Below are positions 46,110 through 54,737 of a stretch of 64,000 nucleotides of DNA, piece by piece (positions within the stretch are counted from its first letter, which is position 1; each line of letters opens with the position of its first letter). Where the stretch lies: positions 3,136,001 to 3,200,000 of the forward strand of contig OZ245033.1 in the NCBI GenBank assembly GCA_965224025.1. The letters are read 5' to 3'. The position numbers and the translations under genes are program-made. Origin of the DNA: Candidatus Multivorans sp. GTDB lineage: Bacteria > Acidobacteriota > Thermoanaerobaculia > Multivoradales > Multivoraceae. The notes under the pieces are model-generated. The model had not been told where the DNA came from. It saw only the letters and a list, made by a program, of their open reading frames with translations, and did not search any database.

Positions 46110-47147
46110 TCAATCGCTCAGTCGCTGCAGAAGGTCCTCCGCGCTCCCGCACTCCTGCGCCGCCCGCATCAGTTCCACTGGCGACTTGTCGCCGAAGACG
46201 GCGAGACGCGCCGCGAGGTCGGCGTCGACGGCTACGCCGCGGCTCTCGAGCAGAGCTGCCACCGCGGCGACCATGCCTTCCGCTCGACCTTCCGCCCGGC
46301 CTTCCGCCCGGCCTTCCGCCCGGCTCTCGTCTCGCTCGTACCGCAGCCACCGATCCTGGTCGGGGCCCGTCCCTTCGCGTGCGCCCAGGGCGCGGCCCAC
46401 CCGGCGCAGCACGGTCATCGTCTGGTCGCTGGGCAGGTGCTCGTTGAGAGCGCGGTGGATCTCCTCCGCCGTCCAGCCGGGGAAGGCGCGGCTGGACGGT
46501 GTGCTCTCGAACCGGCCGTTCTCGAGAACGTGGATCGTGAGCCCCGATCTGCGCGACCTGGGTTGGCTTGCCGCGCGCTCGTCGGGCACGTCGACCCAGA
46601 CCTCCGGGAAGCCCCATGCCTCGTAGCGCGGCAACTTGCCGCGCCGGACATCGGTGGAGTGGTCGACTTCCAGGACGACATCCGGCAGGTCGCCTCCGTC
46701 TACGTCGACTCTCGGGCTCAGTCCGACCGCCGCCGGCGGGTTGACGTACACGATCTGGTCCGCCTGCATGAGAACCCTCATCTTGCCGCTGGCGAAGAGC
46801 CGCACCAGGTCCGTCGTCCCGAACGTCTCGATGAGGGACCCGCTCGAAGCGGCGACCCGTTCGGCCAGCCTCGCCAGGCGTTGGGAGGGCCGTTCGTGAA
46901 ACAGCGTGGTCGGTTCGCAGACCACCATCGCCGTCTCGGTCCGGCTGTCCCAGTACTCGACCCGGCCTTCGTGGTCTTCGATCTTCTCCCGCGGGATCGG
47001 GACCGCCTCGCAGCCGGGGAAGTCGGCGGGGTCGAGCGGCCAGCCGTCGGCGTCGAGCTGGGCGCCCACCGGCCCGGCGGCAGCTTCTCGAGGGTCAGTC
47101 CCCTCGCCCTCCAGGTTGGGAAGAACTGCAGCGGCACCATCAGCCAT
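46110..47147 (-). CDS. Uma2 (DUF820) PD-(D/E)xK nuclease with (RAEG)4 repeats and a small C-terminal domain
   Basis: QADQ, PDVVLEVD, K...Y...G.PEVW; 12-bp repeat x4 at 46276-46323. Confidence 0.85.
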   Translation of the reverse strand: MADGAAAVLPNLEGEGTDPREAAAGPVGAQLDADGWPLDPADFPGCEAVPIPREKIEDHEGRVEYWDSRTETAMVVCEPTTLFHERPSQRLARLAERVAASSGSLIETFGTTDLVRLFASGKMRVLMQADQIVYVNPPAAVGLSPRVDVDGGDLPDVVLEVDHSTDVRRGKLPRYEAWGFPEVWVDVPDERAASQPRSRRSGLTIHVLENGRFESTPSSRAFPGWTAEEIHRALNEHLPSDQTMTVLRRVGRALGAREGTGPDQDRWLRYERDESRAEGRAEGRAEGRAEGMVAAVAALLESRGVAVDADLAARLAVFGDKSPVELMRAAQECGSAEDLLQRLSD

Positions 47148-47199
47148 GGCCCTAGACTACAGCCGATAACTCGGAACGGAGGGATCGAAACGCAGCTCC

Positions 47200-47234
47200 G
47201 GGACGCGGCGAACGAGCTGCGGGCGAACTCGCGG
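47200..47234 (+). repeat. 35-bp exact copy of the hsdM 5' region (48357-48391)
   Basis: gggacgcggcgaacgagctgcgggcgaactcgcgg at both sites (encodes [11 protein letters not shown]). Confidence 0.9.
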
Positions 47235-47264
47235 TTGGTCCGGTGTGGACTCGTTGCCGACCCT

Positions 47265-47329
47265 CCCCGGCTGGCGGTTCGAGACCCGGATGATCCACGC
47301 CGGGGCCGCGCCCGAGCCGATCTCCGGTG
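47265..47329 (+). repeat. 65-bp copy of the metY 5' region (53461-53525)
   Basis: 6 mismatches in 65 nt by manual alignment; encodes PGWRFETRMIHAGAAPEPISG. Confidence 0.85.
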
Positions 47330-47439
47330 TTCCAGCCGGCATCCGGTGCGTCTTGTGCGTCTCAGCTTGGTGCGGGCGAGTAGTATCGCGCTGAGGCCCC
47401 AAGAAAGGGGCCGACTTTGGCGATACGGAGGCACGAGAC

Positions 47440-47934
47440 ATGACATCAGCTTCAAGGGCGTCCTTGCCTGCCTCGTTCGCCCTGCAAGTCGAGGCGCGAC
47501 TGGCCGTGCAGCGCGCCGAGTATGGCGCTCGGATCGAGATGACGGGCCAAGCGGGATCTGTATACGAGGGGGACGATGATGTCTATGCCGTACGCGGCGT
47601 GAAGCCGGGCGGCGTGGTGGGCTTTGGCGCCTCCATCAAGGAGGCATGCCGCGATCACACCCAGAGACTGGGACTCGTACTCGACGATCTGCTTCAGGAA
47701 TCCGCGTCCTATGACGAGTTCGAGCGTCGGGCACAGGCACTCTTCGCCTACGAGAGTCCGTGGTCGCGGCAGCGGTTCGACAGGGCACTGGAGCAGGCGG
47801 TAGCGTCTCTGTTCTCAAGCGACGAGACTTCAGTTGCTGAACCCGACCACTCCATGCCTCCATCGTGGCGCCCGGTCGGTCCTGACCAGCATCTGTCGGC
47901 ACCGGTGACGAGCCTCATTCACCGGAATGCTTGA
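47440..47934 (+). CDS. Hypothetical protein, HicB-like N-terminal fold
   Basis: VYAVRGVKPGGVVGFGASIKEA resembles the HicB 'PG...G.T.EEA' motif; GGAGG upstream. Confidence 0.5.
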   Translation: MTSASRASLPASFALQVEARLAVQRAEYGARIEMTGQAGSVYEGDDDVYAVRGVKPGGVVGFGASIKEACRDHTQRLGLVLDDLLQESASYDEFERRAQALFAYESPWSRQRFDRALEQAVASLFSSDETSVAEPDHSMPPSWRPVGPDQHLSAPVTSLIHRNA

Positions 47935-48319
47935 TGGGGCAGGCCACGGAGGAGCAAGAGTCGAAGTCGGGAACAAGGAACCGGGCGCACCGAGATCACG
48001 CTGATCTCCAGCAGGTTCGACGCCGAGAGCGAGGAACAGCATCGTGCTCTCATCGACGTCTTCAACCGAGAAGGAACCCTGAAACTCAAGCTCAGCGGCA
48101 GGGAGTTCCATGCCGAGCGGATCACGAAGATCCCGACTGAGGACGATCTGACGATGGTTGTCAAGGGCAGGTGGGTCGATTCGTGATTCTGTGCTCAACG
48201 CCTCGTTGGCCGAACTGGGAGTGCTTGTGGTCGTGGAGAATCGGGCGCACGCGACCAGCAGATTCCTTCGGGCCGTTGCGGCTTGAGGCGTGGGGAGACA
48301 CGGCTGCCCCGGAAAGGCC

Positions 48320-49876
48320 ATGAACGACAGCGGAAACCAGTTGGAGGCGCGGCTTTGGGACGCGGCGAACGAGCTGCGGGCGAACTCGCGGCTCAAGGCG
48401 TCGGAGTACTCGACGCCGGTGCTGGGGCTGGTGTGTCTGCGCTATGCGGACCACAGGTTCCAGGCGGCCAGGGAGGAGATCGAAGGTGCGTCAAGTAGGC
48501 GGCGGCAAGTCGGGCCGGCGGACTACCAGGCGCGGGGCGTGCTTTACGTGCCCCCGGAGGCGAGCTATCGACGCCTGACCCGGCTGCCGGAAGGCGAGAA
48601 CGTCGGCGCAGCCGTCAACGAGGCGATGAGTGCGATCGAGGCCGCCAACCCGGACTTGAAGGATGTTCTTCCGAAGACCTACAACCGCTTCGACAATGCT
48701 CTCCTGAGTGAGTTGCTGAAGACCATGAACTCGGTGCCTATGGACGTCGAAGGCGACGTGTTCGGGAAGATCTACGAGTACTTCCTGGGCAAGTTCGCGA
48801 TGGCCGAAGGGCAGAAGAGAGGAGAGTTCTTTACTCCGACCTCGATCGTGCGCCTGATTGTCGGCATCATCGAGCCCTTCCGGGGCCGCATCTTCGATCC
48901 GGCCTGCGGCACGGGCGGCATGTTCGTCCAGTGCGCCCGCTTCGTTGAAGAGCACCGCCGGGACCCCAACGCGGAGCTCTCGGTCTTCGGTCAGGAGCGG
49001 GTCGCGGACACGGTGCGGCTGGCGAAGATGAATCTCGCCGTCCACGGCCTGGAGGGCGACATCCGGCGGGGCAACGCCTACTACGAGGATCTGCATCGCT
49101 CTCCCGGACGGTTCGACTTCGTGATGGCGAATCCACCCTTCAACGTGAAGAAAGTGGACAAGCCGCGGCTCAAGGACGACAAACGCTTTGGACTCGGCCT
49201 GCCACGCGCCGACAATGCGAACTACCTCTGGATCCAGGTCTTCGCGAGCGCTTTGGCCGAGGGCGGCCGGGCCGGCTTCGTGATGGCGAACTCCGCCGCC
49301 GACGCCGGGCATTCGGAACTTGAGCTTCGGAGGAAGCTGATCCAGAGCGGCATCGTGGACGCGGTCGTTGCCGTGGGACCGAGTTTCTTCTACACCGTGA
49401 CCCTGCCCTGCACGCTGTGGTTCCTGGACAGGGGCAAGCAGGACACGGACCGGGCCGACCGGGTGCTGTTCGTGGACGCGCGAGAGGTCTACCGGCAGGT
49501 CGACCGCGCCCACCGCGACTGGACGGAGGCGCAGATCGAGTTCCTGGCGAACATCGCTCGTCTTTGGCGGGACCGGGCGCCGGAGAACTTGCACGACGGC
49601 GCCGAGATGCTCGCTGAGCACTTCGGGTCGACGCCGGGGTACCGGGATGTGCCCGGCCTTTGCAGGTCGGCGACACTGGCCGAGATCGACGCGCAAGGCT
49701 GGAGTCTGAATCCGGACCGCTACGTAGGCGTGGCCGAGAGGCGAGAGGATGAGTTTGACTTCAAGGTACGGCTCCGCGAGCTGCACGCGGAACTGGAGGG
49801 GTTGAACCAGGAGGGTTGGGAGCTCGAGGAGCGGATTGCGGAGAACGTAGCGTTGTTGCTGGGGACTGAGAAGTGA
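48320..49876 (+). CDS. hsdM: Type I R-M methyltransferase subunit
   Basis: [29 protein letters not shown] (m6A), WSLNP.RYVG. Confidence 0.95.
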
Positions 49877-51351
49877 GGCTGGGTAGCGTCATCGCCGTCA
49901 ATCCCGAGTCCGTTGCCAAGGGCTATCCCCATGAAGAGATCGAGTATGTCGATATCTCGTCAGTTGGCACCGGCACGCTGAAGGGCACCCGACGCCTAGC
50001 TCTTGCCGGCGCGCCGAGCCGAGCGAGAAGAATCGTCAGACAGGGAGACGTGCTGCTCGCGACTGTCCGACCAAACTTGAGAGCCTTCTGGTTTGCTCGG
50101 GAACCGCCTCGCAACACTGTGGCTTCCACGGGTTTCGCCGTGCTGAGGGCAACATGCGGGATTGATGAACGGTACCTCTACTACTTGATCTCGGACCAGG
50201 GCTTCACCGACTACTTGGCGGCCAACGTCAAGGGGGCTGCTTATCCTGCCGTCGACGTTGAGACGATCAGGCGCGCCGAGGTGTCGATCGCTCCGATGGA
50301 AACCCAGCGCAAAGTCGCCGCCGTCCTCTCGGCATACGACGACTTGATCGAGAACAACCTACGCCGGATCGAGGTCCTGGAGGAGATGGCGCGGAACTTC
50401 TACCGCGAGTGGTTCGTTGAATTCCGGTTTCCGGGTCACGAGGGTGCTCGCTTCGTGAAGTCGCCGCTGGGACGGCTGCCGGGCGAATGGACTCCGAGGA
50501 CGCTCGGCGAGGTCGCGACGATACAGACTGGTCGCTCGAATCGGCAGGACGCGGTTGCGGGCGGTGCCTTCGCTTTCTTTGACCCTTCGAGTGAGATCAA
50601 GAGGAGCCAGCGTTTCCTATTGGATTGCGAGGCGGTCATTGTCCCGGGAGAGGGCAAGGAGTTCCTTCCCCGGTACTGGAGCGGTCCGTTCGATCTACAC
50701 CAGCGTGTTTATGCCTTGACGGACTTCAGAGGAATCAGCGGTCTGTTCCTGTACTTTACTCTGCTGCACCGGCGCGAGTACTTTTTCCGGGCTGCCACCG
50801 GAGCCACGGTCAAGTCCCTTCGGAAAGGCATGTTCGAACGTTTTGAGTTCGCGCTTCCCACACAGGAACTAATGAGCCGGTTCGACGCTCATGTTCGGGA
50901 CATTCTGGCGTTGGCGAAGGCGCTTGACGACCGCAACAGCGCCCTTCGTGAGGCCCGCGATCTTCTCTTGCCCAAGCTCGTCTCCGGCGAGATTGACGTT
51001 TCCGACCTGCCCGTCCGCATGCCGCCCCTCTACACGGGCGATCCCCACCGCATCACCGGGTACCGGTTCTTCCGGGAGATCACGGCTCTGCCGTTCGTCA
51101 CCAAGGTCGTGCTCTTCGGGTCGCGCGCGCGCGGCGACCACGAGGAACGCTCGGACATTGACCTCTGCGTCTTCTGCCGGGAGGGCACGACGGAGGAGGA
51201 ATGGATGCAGGTGCTGGCCTGTCTGGAGCGAGACCGCGTCGATACCCTGCTTAAGGTGGATTGCGTGCGCTTCGAGACAGGCAACGCCGCGTTGCAGGAG
51301 AACGTGCTGACGGAGGGCATCGTGCTCTACGAGCGGAGGGAGGGTCCGTGA
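49873..51351 (+). CDS. hsdS: Type I R-M specificity subunit fused to a C-terminal MNT (MntA-like) nucleotidyltransferase
   Basis: TRD1, conserved helix ([25 protein letters not shown]...YREWF), TRD2, [15 protein letters not shown]; then with no stop [17 protein letters not shown] (GSx10DxD). Confidence 0.9.
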
Positions 51352-51761
51352 GCGAGACGAAGCTGGCGGTCCGGTTGAGCAATGTCGAGAGGAGCCTTGC
51401 GCGACTGGAAGCAGTGGCGCGTAAGGAGATGGACGAGGAGTACGTGAATCTCGACGCTACGGTTCATCGCTTCAACACGGTCTACGAGACCCTGCTCAAG
51501 GCGCTGGACGCCCATCTGGCGTGCGTATACCGGATGTCTCCGAGCGAGCGAGGGCGCTCGAACTTCGAACGGCTGCAAGTCGCCTGGCGTGTGGGTCTGA
51601 TCGACGACGATCAGGTCTGGACCCGCATCCGCAAGGCGCGCAACGCGACGGTTCACGAGTACGACCTGGAGCAGGCGCTGGCGTTGTACCGGGCGGTGAA
51701 GACCTACGTACCGCAGCTTCGCTCGCTGCTGCGGCGGATGCGCGTCGGTCCGGTTGAGTGA
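51348..51761 (+). CDS. HEPN (HI0074/HepT-like) RNase toxin
   Basis: DATVHRF...YE...K, GLIDD..W, RNATVHEY (Rx4HxY); GTGA overlap with hsdS-MNT. Confidence 0.85.
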   Translation: MSETKLAVRLSNVERSLARLEAVARKEMDEEYVNLDATVHRFNTVYETLLKALDAHLACVYRMSPSERGRSNFERLQVAWRVGLIDDDQVWTRIRKARNATVHEYDLEQALALYRAVKTYVPQLRSLLRRMRVGPVE

Positions 51762-51816
51762 TGGCGGCCCGCAGTGCCAGGCAGGCGCCGAGCAACGTCT
51801 CCGCTTCGCTTCTCGC

Positions 51817-52806
51817 ATGAGCTCGCACGGCTATTCCGAGGACGACCTGGTCAAGCAGCCTGCGCTCGACCTGTTCCGTGAACTGGGCTGGGAGACGGTG
51901 GACGCCTTCGGGGAGTTCGGCCGCGCGGGCGGTGACGGACGGAGCGGGCTGGGTCGGGAAACGGAGGGCGAGGTCGTTCTGGTCGCAAGACTCCGGCCGG
52001 CTCTCGAACGACTCAACCCGAACGCGGGCGAGGCCGCCGTCGACCAGGCGATCGAGGAACTGACGCGCGACCGGTCAAGGATGAGCCCGGCGGCCGCGAA
52101 TCGCGAGACCTACCGCCTGCTGAAGGACGGTGTGCGGGTGAACGTCCCGTCCTTCGAGGAGAACGGCGACACGGTCGAACGGGTCCAGGTCATCGACTGG
52201 AACGTCCCGGCGAACAACGACTTCCTTCTCTGCTCCGAGTTCTGGCTGGCGGGCGAGATGTACCGACGCCGGGCCGATCTGGTGGGCTTCGTCAACGGTT
52301 TGCCGTTGCTGTTCTGCGAAGTGGAGGGCGTCCATCGGCGGCTGGAGGACGCCTACAACGAGAACCTGCGCGACTACAAGGACACCATTCCTCAGCTCTT
52401 TTGGTTCAACTGCCTTGCGTGTGCCAGAACACACCGAGCCGGCCCTGACGGCCGCGAATCGTCCTCAGCGCTCAATGCTGCGGAGTTCTTCAGACAGGTA
52501 GTCGAGTTCACCCAGGATCTCAACGAAGAGGAGCGGCGAGGCGTTGCGGAAAAGCTCGATCCCGACGAACTGGCGGTTTTCGACATCCTGACGAGACCCC
52601 GGGTCGAAATGAGCGACGCGGATTGCAAAAAAGTCAAGGCCACCGCGCGTGAACTCCTGGCGACGCTCAAGGCCGGGAAGTTCGCTTTGGACTGGCGCAC
52701 GAAGCAGCAGGCCCGCGCCGCGGTTCGCGTGACCATCGAGGAGCATCTGGACGCGGGCCTGCCGCGCGCCTACACGCCGGTCCTGTTTCAGAAGAGCGAG
52801 CAGTAA
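51817..52806 (+). pseudogene. hsdR: hsdR remnant: HSDR_N joined to the C-terminal domain, helicase core deleted
   Basis: YSEDDLV.QPA..LF.ELGW, NDFL, RRADLV.FVNGLPL, then EFF..VEF.QDL.EEE.R...ELAVFDIL, LDWR.KQQARA.V. No Walker or DEAH motifs; about 330 aa against ~1000. Confidence 0.88.
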
Positions 52807-52892
52807 CACGCATCCGATCAGTTTGTGTCTGAACCTGATCGCACGGCTCGTACCGAGGCACCGAGAAAGCCGACGGCGCTAACATCCGCGCC

Positions 52893-53423
52893 GTGACTTC
52901 CGCCCTCCACTACAGCGACGCACTGATCCTGGGCATTCTGCGCCGGGTGCGGACGATCGCCGTGGTGGGCGCTTCGCCGAACTGGAAGCGGCCCTCGAAC
53001 TTCGCCATGAAGTACCTGCAGGAGAAGGGATACCGCGTGATTCCGGTGAATCCCCGGGCGGCGGCTCAAGGTGCCTCTATTCTGGGCGAGCGGGTCTGTG
53101 CATCCCTGGCCGAGGTGCCGGCGGCGGTGGACATGGTCGACATCTTCCGTAGCTCGGAGGCGGCTCTCGGAACGACCCGGGAAGCGATCCGGCTGCGGGA
53201 GGAGAAGGGCATCGAGGTGGTCTGGATGCAGCTCGGCGTGCGCAACGACGAAGCCGCCGCCGAGGCGGAGGCGGCCGGGCTCACGGTGATCATGGATCGC
53301 TGCCCGAAGATCGAGTACGGCCGCCTGTCGGGCGAGCTGGGCTGGGGCGGCATCGACAGCGGCGTCATCTCCAGCCGGCGCCCGCGGCTGGTGCGGGTGC
53401 CTGTGCGCGGAGGGTCCGGGTGA
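52893..53423 (+). CDS. CoA-binding protein (YccU-like)
   Basis: TIAVVGAS.N..RPS, IPVNP, DMVDIFR, VWMQLG, MDRCPKIE. Confidence 0.9.
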   Translation: MTSALHYSDALILGILRRVRTIAVVGASPNWKRPSNFAMKYLQEKGYRVIPVNPRAAAQGASILGERVCASLAEVPAAVDMVDIFRSSEAALGTTREAIRLREEKGIEVVWMQLGVRNDEAAAEAEAAGLTVIMDRCPKIEYGRLSGELGWGGIDSGVISSRRPRLVRVPVRGGSG

Positions 53424-54737
53424 GCGGGGGAGCAGGGCCGAAGCCGCGCCGGGAGGCGGACCCCGGTTGGGGGTTCGAAACCCGGATGATCCACGCCGGG
53501 GCCGTGCCCGAGCCGGTCTCCGGCGCCCGGCAGACGCCGATCTATCAGAACACGGCTTACGCGTTCCACGACGTGGACCACGCCGCTTCGCTGTTCAATC
53601 TGCAGACCTTCGGCTTCATCTACTCGCGCCTGGGGAATCCCACGGTCGCCGCGCTGGAACAACGGCTGGCGAGCCTGGAAGGCGGGCGGGGCGCCGCCTG
53701 CTGCGCGTCCGGCCACGCGGCACAGATGCTCGCGTTCTTCCCGTTGATGGAGCCCGGCGCCCGGTTTGCCGCATCGCACCGGCTCTACGGCGGGTCGATC
53801 ACCCAGTTCAGCAGGACGTTCCAGAAGTTCGACTGGCTCTGCGACTTCGTCGACACGGACGATCTGTCCGCGGTCGAGGCCGCCCTGGGATGCCGGCGCC
53901 AAGGCGCTGTTCATCGAGAGCCTAGCCAATCCGGGCGGCGTCGTTTCGGATCTCGAGGCCCTCGCCGGACTGACGAAGGCCGCGGGCGCCGTGCTCATCG
54001 TCGACAACACGCTGGCCACTCCCTGGTTGTGCCGGCCGATGGACTGGGGCGTCGACCTGGTCGTCCACTCCGCAACCAAGTTCCTGTCCGGCAACGGCAC
54101 GGTCATCGGCGGCGCGTTGGTCGACAGCGGCCGCTTCGACTGGGGCGCTTCCGGCCGCTTTCCAGGGCTGTCGGAACCGGAACCGGCTTACCACGGGCTG
54201 AAGTTCAGCGAGACCTTCGGTGACCTCGCGTTCACCACTCACGCCCATGCCGTGGGCCTGCGCGACCTGGGCGCCGCGATGGCGCCGATGAACGCGTTTC
54301 TGATCCTGCTCGGCATCGAGACCCTGGCTCTGCGCATGGAGCGCCACTGCCGAAACGCGCAGCGGGTCGCCGAGTGGCTGGAGGAGCACCCGAAGGTCGA
54401 ATGGGTGTCTTATGCCGGCCTGGCCGACAGCCCCTACCGGGATCTGGCCGCGAAGTACCTGCCGAAGGGCGCGGGCGCCGTGTTCACGTTCGGAGTCCGC
54501 GGCGGCTACGACGCCGGCATCCGGGTCGTGGAAGCTTGCGATCTCTTCTCGCACCTGGCCAACGTCGGCGACGCCCGCTCGCTGATCCTCCATCCCGCCT
54601 CGACCACCCACCGTCAACTGAGCGACGAGCAGCGTGCCGCCGCCGGCGCCGGCCCCGAGGTTGTGCGACTCTCGATCGGCCTCGAGACGGTGGACGACCT
54701 GATCCGCGACCTCGACCGTGCCCTGGCCGCGGCGTAG
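53420..54737 (+). pseudogene. metY: O-acetylhomoserine sulfhydrylase with a +1 frameshift (real or sequencing error)
   Basis: FET..IHAG, PIYQ, YSRLGNPT in one frame; ESLANP, DNT, HSATKF, HPASTTH in another. Removing one G at 53887-53889 restores AALDAGAK. Confidence 0.85.

Follow-up and report, generated by a model that had tools for sequence, protein, structure and literature searches.

The hsd operon and its fused specificity subunit

The DNA analyzed here (hereafter the window) is a stretch of 64,000 nucleotides of Candidatus Multivorans sp. (assembly GCA_965224025.1, contig OZ245033.1, positions 3,136,001 to 3,200,000). It carries a type I restriction-modification (R-M) operon, in which the specificity subunit HsdS is continued in frame by an MNT nucleotidyltransferase domain and is followed by a small gene of the HEPN class. 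Four closely spaced genes occupy the + strand between 48290 and 52806, in the order hsdM, hsdS-mnt, hepN and hsdR. The first one, hsdM (48290..49876, +), encodes the type I methyltransferase in an open reading frame (ORF) of 528 aa, the start of which may be the ATG at 48320. Its product harbors PF02384 (3.8e-81) and HsdM_N (1.5e-20), is matched by the PADLOC model MTase_I (7e-206) and presents a 95% identity with the HsdM of a related locus (L006). The stop codon of hsdM is overlapped by the GTG start of hsdS-mnt (GTGA). The latter gene comprises an HsdS module (residues 1-372, 49873..50988, +), a linker (residues 373-390, 50989..51042, +) and the MNT domain together with the stop codon (residues 391-492, 51043..51351, +). 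Next to it are located hepN (51348..51761, +), encoding a 137 aa protein of the HI0074 family, and the remnant of hsdR (51817..52806, +), which counts 329 aa from ATG 51817. The HsdS module belongs to an hsd operon, having hsdM upstream and hsdR downstream, although the second is a deletion remnant.

The fusion is encoded by one open frame of the + strand (49873-51351, 492 aa) and no stop codon is found between the end of HsdS (residues 365-376) and the MNT domain. Pfam detected both parts: residues 82-170 match Methylase_S (PF01420, 3.1e-11), residues 409-490 match Polbeta (PF18765, 3.6e-17), and the Specificity_I models of PADLOC span residues 10-377. The AlphaFold2 model of the whole chain has a mean pLDDT of 87 and a pTM of 0.70, with a pLDDT of approximately 90 for the HsdS module, which shows two recognition domains rich in beta structure and two helices of 40 residues (142-182 and 331-371). 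This is the architecture of an HsdS, with two target-recognition domains (TRDs) and the conserved central and C-terminal helices. Structural comparison of this part by Foldseek led to solved HsdS chains (E 1e-21 to 1e-14), with 3okg, 5ybb, 7vru and 1yf2 at 1e-21 to 1e-17 and a target template modelling (TM) score of 0.71 for 7vru, and the EcoKI M2S1 model 2y7c was also among the best matches. Residues 1-372 are a complete specificity subunit. The linker that follows drops below a pLDDT of 50 at residues 383-388 and varies in sequence and length among relatives. Concerning the MNT part, Foldseek matched the MNT antitoxin 8xeo_B (TM 0.74), and phmmer matched the 9z7q “Cmr1-MntA” and the 8xeh MNT. 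The catalytic motif expected of a type VII toxin-antitoxin (TA) antitoxin, GSx10DxD, is located at residues 416-430 of the fusion (51118-51162).

The GTG start of hepN at 51348 overlaps the stop codon of the MNT (TGA, 51349-51351) by 4 nt (GTGA) and is preceded by a strong Shine-Dalgarno (SD) sequence, GGAGGGAGGG. Through this overlap, hepN is translationally coupled to hsdS-mnt. Its product contains PF08780 (1.7e-17; 64 bits against a cut-off of 31.8) and lies above the curated cut-off of TIGR01987, the HI0074 family (70.6 against 55.8 bits), of which it is a member. Among solved structures, HI0074 itself (1jog, 2.7e-8) is its closest relative. The only Pfam families matched are PF08780 and PF01934, and among the PADLOC models none matched the HEPN protein. 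The HEPN motif, R98-N-A-T-V-H103-E-Y105 (RNATVHEY), is encoded at 51639-51662 and presents both the Rx4H and the adjacent Tyr, and its R, N, H and Y were invariant in 20/20 aligned rows. A predicted complex of fusion residues 360-492 with two HEPN copies reached a score of 0.38, and one control reached 0.28, values that speak neither for nor against binding. An earlier note on this DNA, made from the letters and their translations, had described an HsdS that runs past its canonical end into a complete MNT with GSx10DxD, and a next gene that overlaps it by GTGA, encodes a HEPN with Rx4HxY and sits between hsdS and hsdR; every element of this description was found again here.

The same note had named two ways in which the fusion could fail, namely that it is a singleton or a sequencing error, and that the MNT is made separately from ATG 51019. 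For the first, Logan contigs of the runs X1 (50368-52192) and X2 (50491-52192) cross both the HsdS-MNT and the MNT-HEPN junction with 0 differences and 0 gaps. They come from runs of one sample, which may be the source of the assembly itself, so that an assembler artifact is excluded but the agreement is not independent. A contig of approximately 90% identity from another study (50991-51602) presents the same order of HsdS tail, MNT and HEPN, with one in-frame deletion of 3 nt. Since the contigs agree and the fusion recurs in independent assemblies (see below), the first possibility was rejected. The second was rejected as a general rule, because no SD sequence precedes ATG 51019 and no internal start is conserved. 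Among the relatives, the Met of this codon, which lies in the linker, occurs only in P0002, P0004, P0069 and the window; the others have another residue here, and the aligned linkers vary by in-frame indels without any conserved Met.

Contigs also revealed some variation around the fusion. The sample of X1 and X2 contains the first recognition domain in another allelic form as well (49873-50441, with 7-16 differences per contig), which departs from the window after approximately 50441; this is consistent with a second HsdS having the same TRD1 and another TRD2. In run X4, from another study, one contig joins the HsdS central region (50461) to the end of the HEPN (51609), skipping 1147 nt, and may represent either a deletion variant of a relative or a chimeric contig.

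The last gene of the operon has lost most of its length. Pfam recognized only HSDR_N and T1RH-like_C in the hsdR ORF, the true start of which is probably ATG 51817. Residues 1-198 align to residues 11-208 of the 1064 aa HsdR of L006 (81% identity) and residues 217-326 align to its residues 931-1040 (82% identity), so the nuclease region is joined directly to the C-terminal domain at about 52411-52464, and approximately 720 residues, the entire helicase motor, are absent. Contigs of X1 and X2 span 52175-52806, including this joint, with 0 differences, and the 76-nt deletion joint is unique in the window’s own genome. In four runs (three samples, three studies), contigs agree with the window over just 35 nt at the joint (52410-52444) and diverge on both sides. 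Having lost its motor, the copy in the window cannot restrict DNA and could at most contribute to methylation, and only the methylation and TA part would still be able to work in this genome. The earlier note had spoken of a TA wired into a type I R-M complex. The fusion behind this phrase is real, but a working restriction complex is missing here; the loss of the hsdR motor had been overlooked.

Recurrence, distribution and origin of the fusion

The tail of the fusion (residues 385-492) was used as query against proteins of 270-861 aa, and 49 out of 104 candidates were matched. At E <= 1.5e-30, 47 protein clusters form a clade with 58-100% identity. The architecture of an HsdS followed by a nucleotidyltransferase is therefore a recurrent one: PF01420 and PF18765 occur together in 43/47 of the clade proteins, and 21 of those 43 additionally contain PF08780 and are thus HsdS-MNT-HEPN triple fusions (540-700 aa). 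Four proteins of the clade are left: P0003, P0031 and P0038, which have a shortened N-terminus but whose sequence starts within HsdS, and P0021. The GSx10DxD motif is kept in 47/47 clade proteins and Rx4HxY in all those that include the HEPN (24/24). The N-terminal recognition domains differ widely among the clade proteins and the tail is conserved; HsdS relatives without the tail are common, among them close ones of about 410 aa. The fusion is old, given that MNT identity among fused relatives goes down to 58%, and it has been maintained through swaps of the TRDs. Clade proteins are currently named “restriction endonuclease subunit S” or “hypothetical protein,” and some of the “short” matches are truncated gene calls that still bear the HsdS tail. 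The AlphaFold2 model of a triple fusion was moderate (pLDDT 72, pTM 0.59). As a separate case, P0021 (777 aa) joins HsdM to the last ~15 residues of HsdS, the MNT and the HEPN, the body of hsdS being deleted and the TA tail kept in frame.

Eleven loci with the R-M-linked form, including the window, were inspected. All genes are intact in four of them (4/11), two with the dual fusion and a separate hepN (L112 and L114, all four genes) and two with the triple fusion (L007 and L086). In the others the damage varies: hsdR is deleted in the window and lies in two frames in L085; the HEPN is split by a frameshift in L006; hsdM, HEPN and hsdR are broken in L005; hsdM is absent, HsdS-MNT truncated and hsdR broken in L113; L009 (= L118) has frameshifts in hsdS/mnt; and L087, a near-copy of L086, has a split hsdM. 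Many of these records are metagenome-assembled genomes (MAGs), and some frameshifts may be indel errors. The HsdS-MNT frame is continuous in 10/11 loci. At the boundary of MNT stop and HEPN start, the dual forms overlap by GTGA in the window, L085 and L006, and by TTGA in L005. HsdM identity across relatives (95-62%) accompanies that of the MNT (93-58%), and this divergence in step with the tail indicates that the whole operon travels as a unit.

The scan of genome contigs revealed at least four fused loci, and the metagenome scan three among 21. Two of the inspected loci, L005 (= G029) and L006 (= G026), belong to the window’s own genus, Candidatus Multivorans (Acidobacteriota, Thermoanaerobaculia), where a clade MNT (E <= 1e-20) was detected in 10/42 genomes: six with the fused frame, one frameshifted and three standalone. 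The three standalone MNT-HEPN pairs are found in distinct species and have no hsd genes within 6 kb. An even draw of 400 other genomes of the phylum yielded one match, and that one proved to be of the same genus. Outside the phylum, the fused form is present in a Gammaproteobacteria MAG (L007) and in a protein named after a Gemmatimonadetes MAG (P0032). Among 72,556 plasmid records there were 12 matching ones, all of them standalone MNT pairs of <60% identity, none of which covered the HsdS tail, and 50,697 phage records gave no match. The element is rare, patchy and evidently horizontally transferred.

A maximum-likelihood tree of the MNT domain was built from 90 rows (the 47 clade proteins, P0069 and P0194-P0235), none of which was dropped. 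All HsdS-fused forms fall within one clade of 64 rows (support 100/98), apart from 26 distant standalone MNTs. Inside this clade, nine standalone MNTs (100/98) are established as sister to the dual-fusion group (99/96), and 23 triple forms are grouped together (88/88). The basal forks are weak, so that one fusion followed by fission and two fusions both fit the tree.

A putative antitoxin carried by the specificity subunit

In type VII TA systems, MntA AMPylates the Tyr next to the RNase motif of HepT, as described in parts of PMC7641770 and PMC13000451. In the window, as in HepT/MntA of Shewanella oneidensis (SO_3166/SO_3165) and relatives, an MNT with GSx10DxD lies upstream of a small HEPN that combines Rx4H with a neighboring Tyr, but the MNT of the window lacks a separate gene and forms the C-terminal domain of HsdS. 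The pair is also comparable to HI0073/HI0074 of Haemophilus influenzae (1jog), given the TIGR01987 membership and the best solved relative mentioned above, although HI0073 is a free protein with no link to an HsdS.

We consider that a type VII-like MNT-HEPN pair of the HI0073/HI0074 type was probably captured in the hsdS-hsdR slot and that its antitoxin became the C-terminal domain of HsdS, so that silencing of the RNase is tied to HsdS and serves as addiction and/or as a PrrC-like guard; we give this reading a probability of about 0.6. The antitoxin gene would have lost its own start and would be translated as the C-terminal domain of HsdS, the HsdS part of which would assemble into M2S1 as usual. 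The flexibly tethered MNT would then bind the HEPN and AMPylate Tyr105, next to R98x4H103, and the RNase would stay silent. As the antitoxin exists only within HsdS, silencing would depend on the continued synthesis and on the integrity of this subunit. The RNase would be freed if the locus were lost, if host translation were blocked or if the methylase core were poisoned, and this would result in addiction to the hsd locus and/or in an abortive second layer of defence similar to that of PrrC. Guard and addiction are two outcomes that our analysis cannot tell apart, and a dependence of toxin silencing on the state of M2S1 is something that we purely infer.

PrrC is one of the closest precedents. 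Passages of PMC3710099 and PMC12707154 describe it as a guardian of R-M in the EcoprrI type IC locus, kept latent via the R-M proteins and freed when a phage inhibits them. As in the window, the gene of a HEPN-fold RNase lies inside a type I hsd operon. However, PrrC has an N-terminal ABC ATPase, no MNT and a non-covalent control, whereas here the partner of a 137 aa HEPN is an antitoxin enzyme built covalently into HsdS. Membership of the PrrC/RloC family was rejected for this HEPN protein, as its 137 aa include no ABC ATPase; only PF08780 and PF01934 were matched, and PADLOC gave no hit. The analogy with PrrC that had been proposed for this locus holds for the genomic slot and the HEPN fold, but not for the ABC-ATPase domain, which is absent here.

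Other systems share further single features. In the part of PMC12255303 on which we rely, a DarTG2 TA is inserted between hsdS and hsdR, within an island that is active against phages, and this slot is presented as a known site of embedded defence or TA modules. The TA module of the window occupies exactly the same slot of a type I system, but the DarTG2 module acts by DNA ADP-ribosylation and its genes are separate, none being fused to HsdS. PrrC and DarTG2 together show that the hsdS-hsdR slot hosts second-line modules. Self-oligoAMPylation is reported for fused MNT-HEPN proteins (FhepTA) in a portion of PMC13000451. The triple-fusion sister branch (21 clusters) likewise unites MNT and HEPN in a single chain that retains the catalytic residues, the difference being that the unit is attached to HsdS. 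Finally, the PDB entries 9z7q/9z7v/9z7x, “Cmr1-MntA,” present an MntA-type domain (residues 368-433 of 438) at the C-terminus of an immune-complex subunit and include the best solved match to the MNT of the window (3.7e-5). The host complex there is a type III CRISPR Cmr complex, known to us from the molecule name alone, and our literature search found no paper on Cmr1-MntA.

The literature search also found no description of an HsdS-MNT fusion, with the supplements of PMC3710099 lying outside its coverage. The words “HsdS” and “restriction” each have 0 occurrences in the 2026 paper on fused MNT-HEPN proteins (PMC13000451). The survey of Anantharaman et al. (2013; PMC3710099) links, in the sections available, at least 16 HEPN clades to R-M systems, and the R-M-associated HEPNs named there are fused to nucleases, helicases and ATPases, not to methylases; “HsdS” has 0 occurrences in its main text, and its supplements, which possibly list such architectures, were not covered. 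The earlier note had rated the locus as the best candidate for an undescribed system. As far as our searches reach, this applies to the fusion itself; a TA in the same slot (DarTG2) and an MntA joined to a subunit of an immune complex (“Cmr1-MntA”) are precedents. Type I operons with a TA or abortive module are known, and we rate the covalent union of such a module with the specificity subunit as new.

Toxin or abortive modules of type I R-M operons have been known from PrrC and DarTG2, and the cross-talk between the layers is understood only for PrrC. Placing the antitoxin, and in one branch the toxin as well, within the HsdS polypeptide fixes stoichiometry and contact by design, and would allow structural and genetic work to test directly the coupling of an RNase switch to a restriction enzyme. 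Such a design, rare but recurring, may link the restriction enzyme to a switch for suicide or addiction. Beside “Cmr1-MntA,” it is also a second example of a nucleic-acid-targeting immune complex in which one subunit has received an MntA domain, and the two hint at a general arming of immune complexes with AMPylation-gated RNases.

Several observations weigh against the capture of an HsdS-borne antitoxin as proposed here. Unlike HepT/MntA proper, the pair misses the NCBIfam equivalog cut-offs, the MNT reaching 52.8 bits against the 60 of the MntA model (NF047752) and the HEPN 23.2 bits against the 60 of the HepT model (NF047751), and it belongs to the less studied HI0073/HI0074 branch. One MNT per M2S1 is at odds with the MNT dimers of 2/3 of the stoichiometries quoted in the available part of PMC13000451. 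The standalone pairs of the genus indicate that the pair needs no R-M system, and the close tail-less relatives indicate that HsdS needs no tail. At least one gene is broken in 7/11 loci, with the proviso made above for MAG frameshifts, and in the window itself hsdR is dead.

Competing explanations

It is possible, and in our view unlikely, that the pair is a plain selfish TA passenger that landed in the hsdS-hsdR hotspot and was fused by accident, having no cross-talk with R-M. The stop codon of hsdS would have been lost, an easy event between genes overlapping by 4 nt, and the tether would be functionally meaningless. Standalone sister pairs (56-60% MNT identity) without hsd genes occur in the same genus, nine standalone MNTs are nested within the fused clade of the tree, and the slot is a hotspot already described (PMC12255303, in the part cited above). 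Moreover, the R-M genes are often broken with the TA intact, both MNT and HEPN being intact in 8/11 loci against 4/11 with everything intact. A meaningless tether is, however, difficult to reconcile with a fused frame that lasts in 10/11 loci and in 47 clusters, through 58-100% divergence, linker indels and many recognition domains. In addition, a second fusion, that of the HEPN, took place in the same lineage (21 clusters), and a conserved internal MNT start was found in no relative.

A stronger version of the coupling seems to us doubtful to a similar degree. Here the restriction enzyme would count the HEPN RNase among its integral, regulated subunits, as a covalent “guardian” held through the HsdS-tethered MNT. 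The RNase would be AMPylated on the M2S1 core and would fire once DNA-mimic anti-restriction proteins poison the core or hsdS is no longer synthesized. Each complex of a triple fusion has one HEPN, and activation would need two complexes to meet. Such meetings occur when translocating enzymes collide on unmodified DNA, and RNA cleavage would be coupled to restriction.

It is quite improbable that no TA is involved and that the MNT, together with the HI0074 “substrate-binding” protein, forms a nucleotidyltransferase holoenzyme which HsdS takes to DNA and which modifies another target (HsdR, HsdM, a phage protein or nucleic acid). The family name and the original interpretation of HI0073/HI0074 (PF08780, “NTase substrate binding”) point in this direction, as does the statement, in the available sections of Anantharaman et al. 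(2013; PMC3710099), that fused MNT-HEPN proteins are often domesticated as enzymes. According to the same sections, though, domesticated fused HEPNs typically lose the RNase residues, and here R, H and Y are invariant in the fused proteins (24/24) and in the aligned rows (20/20).

The least probable explanation, and a very weak candidate, is that the fusion is effectively undone in this genome, either because the MNT is made from ATG 51019, which exists and would yield a typical MNT of 110 aa, or because the frame is an assembly error, the assembly having at least one suspicious homopolymer frameshift nearby (in a metY-like gene); against this stand the missing SD sequence before 51019 and the strong one before hepN, the restriction of the ATG 51019 Met to four relatives (P0002, P0004, P0069 and the window), the base-for-base agreement of the contigs of two runs across the junctions and the same fused frame in independent assemblies.

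With regard to the genomic context, the operon is located in a segment of lower GC content (0.61-0.66 over ~47400-52900, against 0.68-0.70 in the flanks), and this low-GC island is acquired. Its left edge bears a composite relic (47191-47327), of which the first part is 44 nt with 93% identity to the 5' end of hsdM (48348-48391) and the second, 30 nt further, is 63 nt with 92% identity to the 5' end of the metY-like gene (53461-53523). The relic resembles what an earlier island copy would leave behind on its deletion, or else a flanking direct repeat pair. The metY-like gene (53420-54737), similar to O-acetylhomoserine sulfhydrylases, lies in two frames due to an extra G in CTGGGAT near 53885, and is either a pseudogene or the product of a homopolymer error in the assembly. 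Inside the island, upstream of hsdM, a 164 aa ORF (47440-47934) had no Pfam, NCBIfam or PADLOC match. Finally, a 345 aa ORF with an AEGR tandem repeat (46110-47147, -) borders the island and presents a weak match to Uma2, a putative restriction endonuclease, at 24.7 bits, which is below the cut-off of 27 bits.

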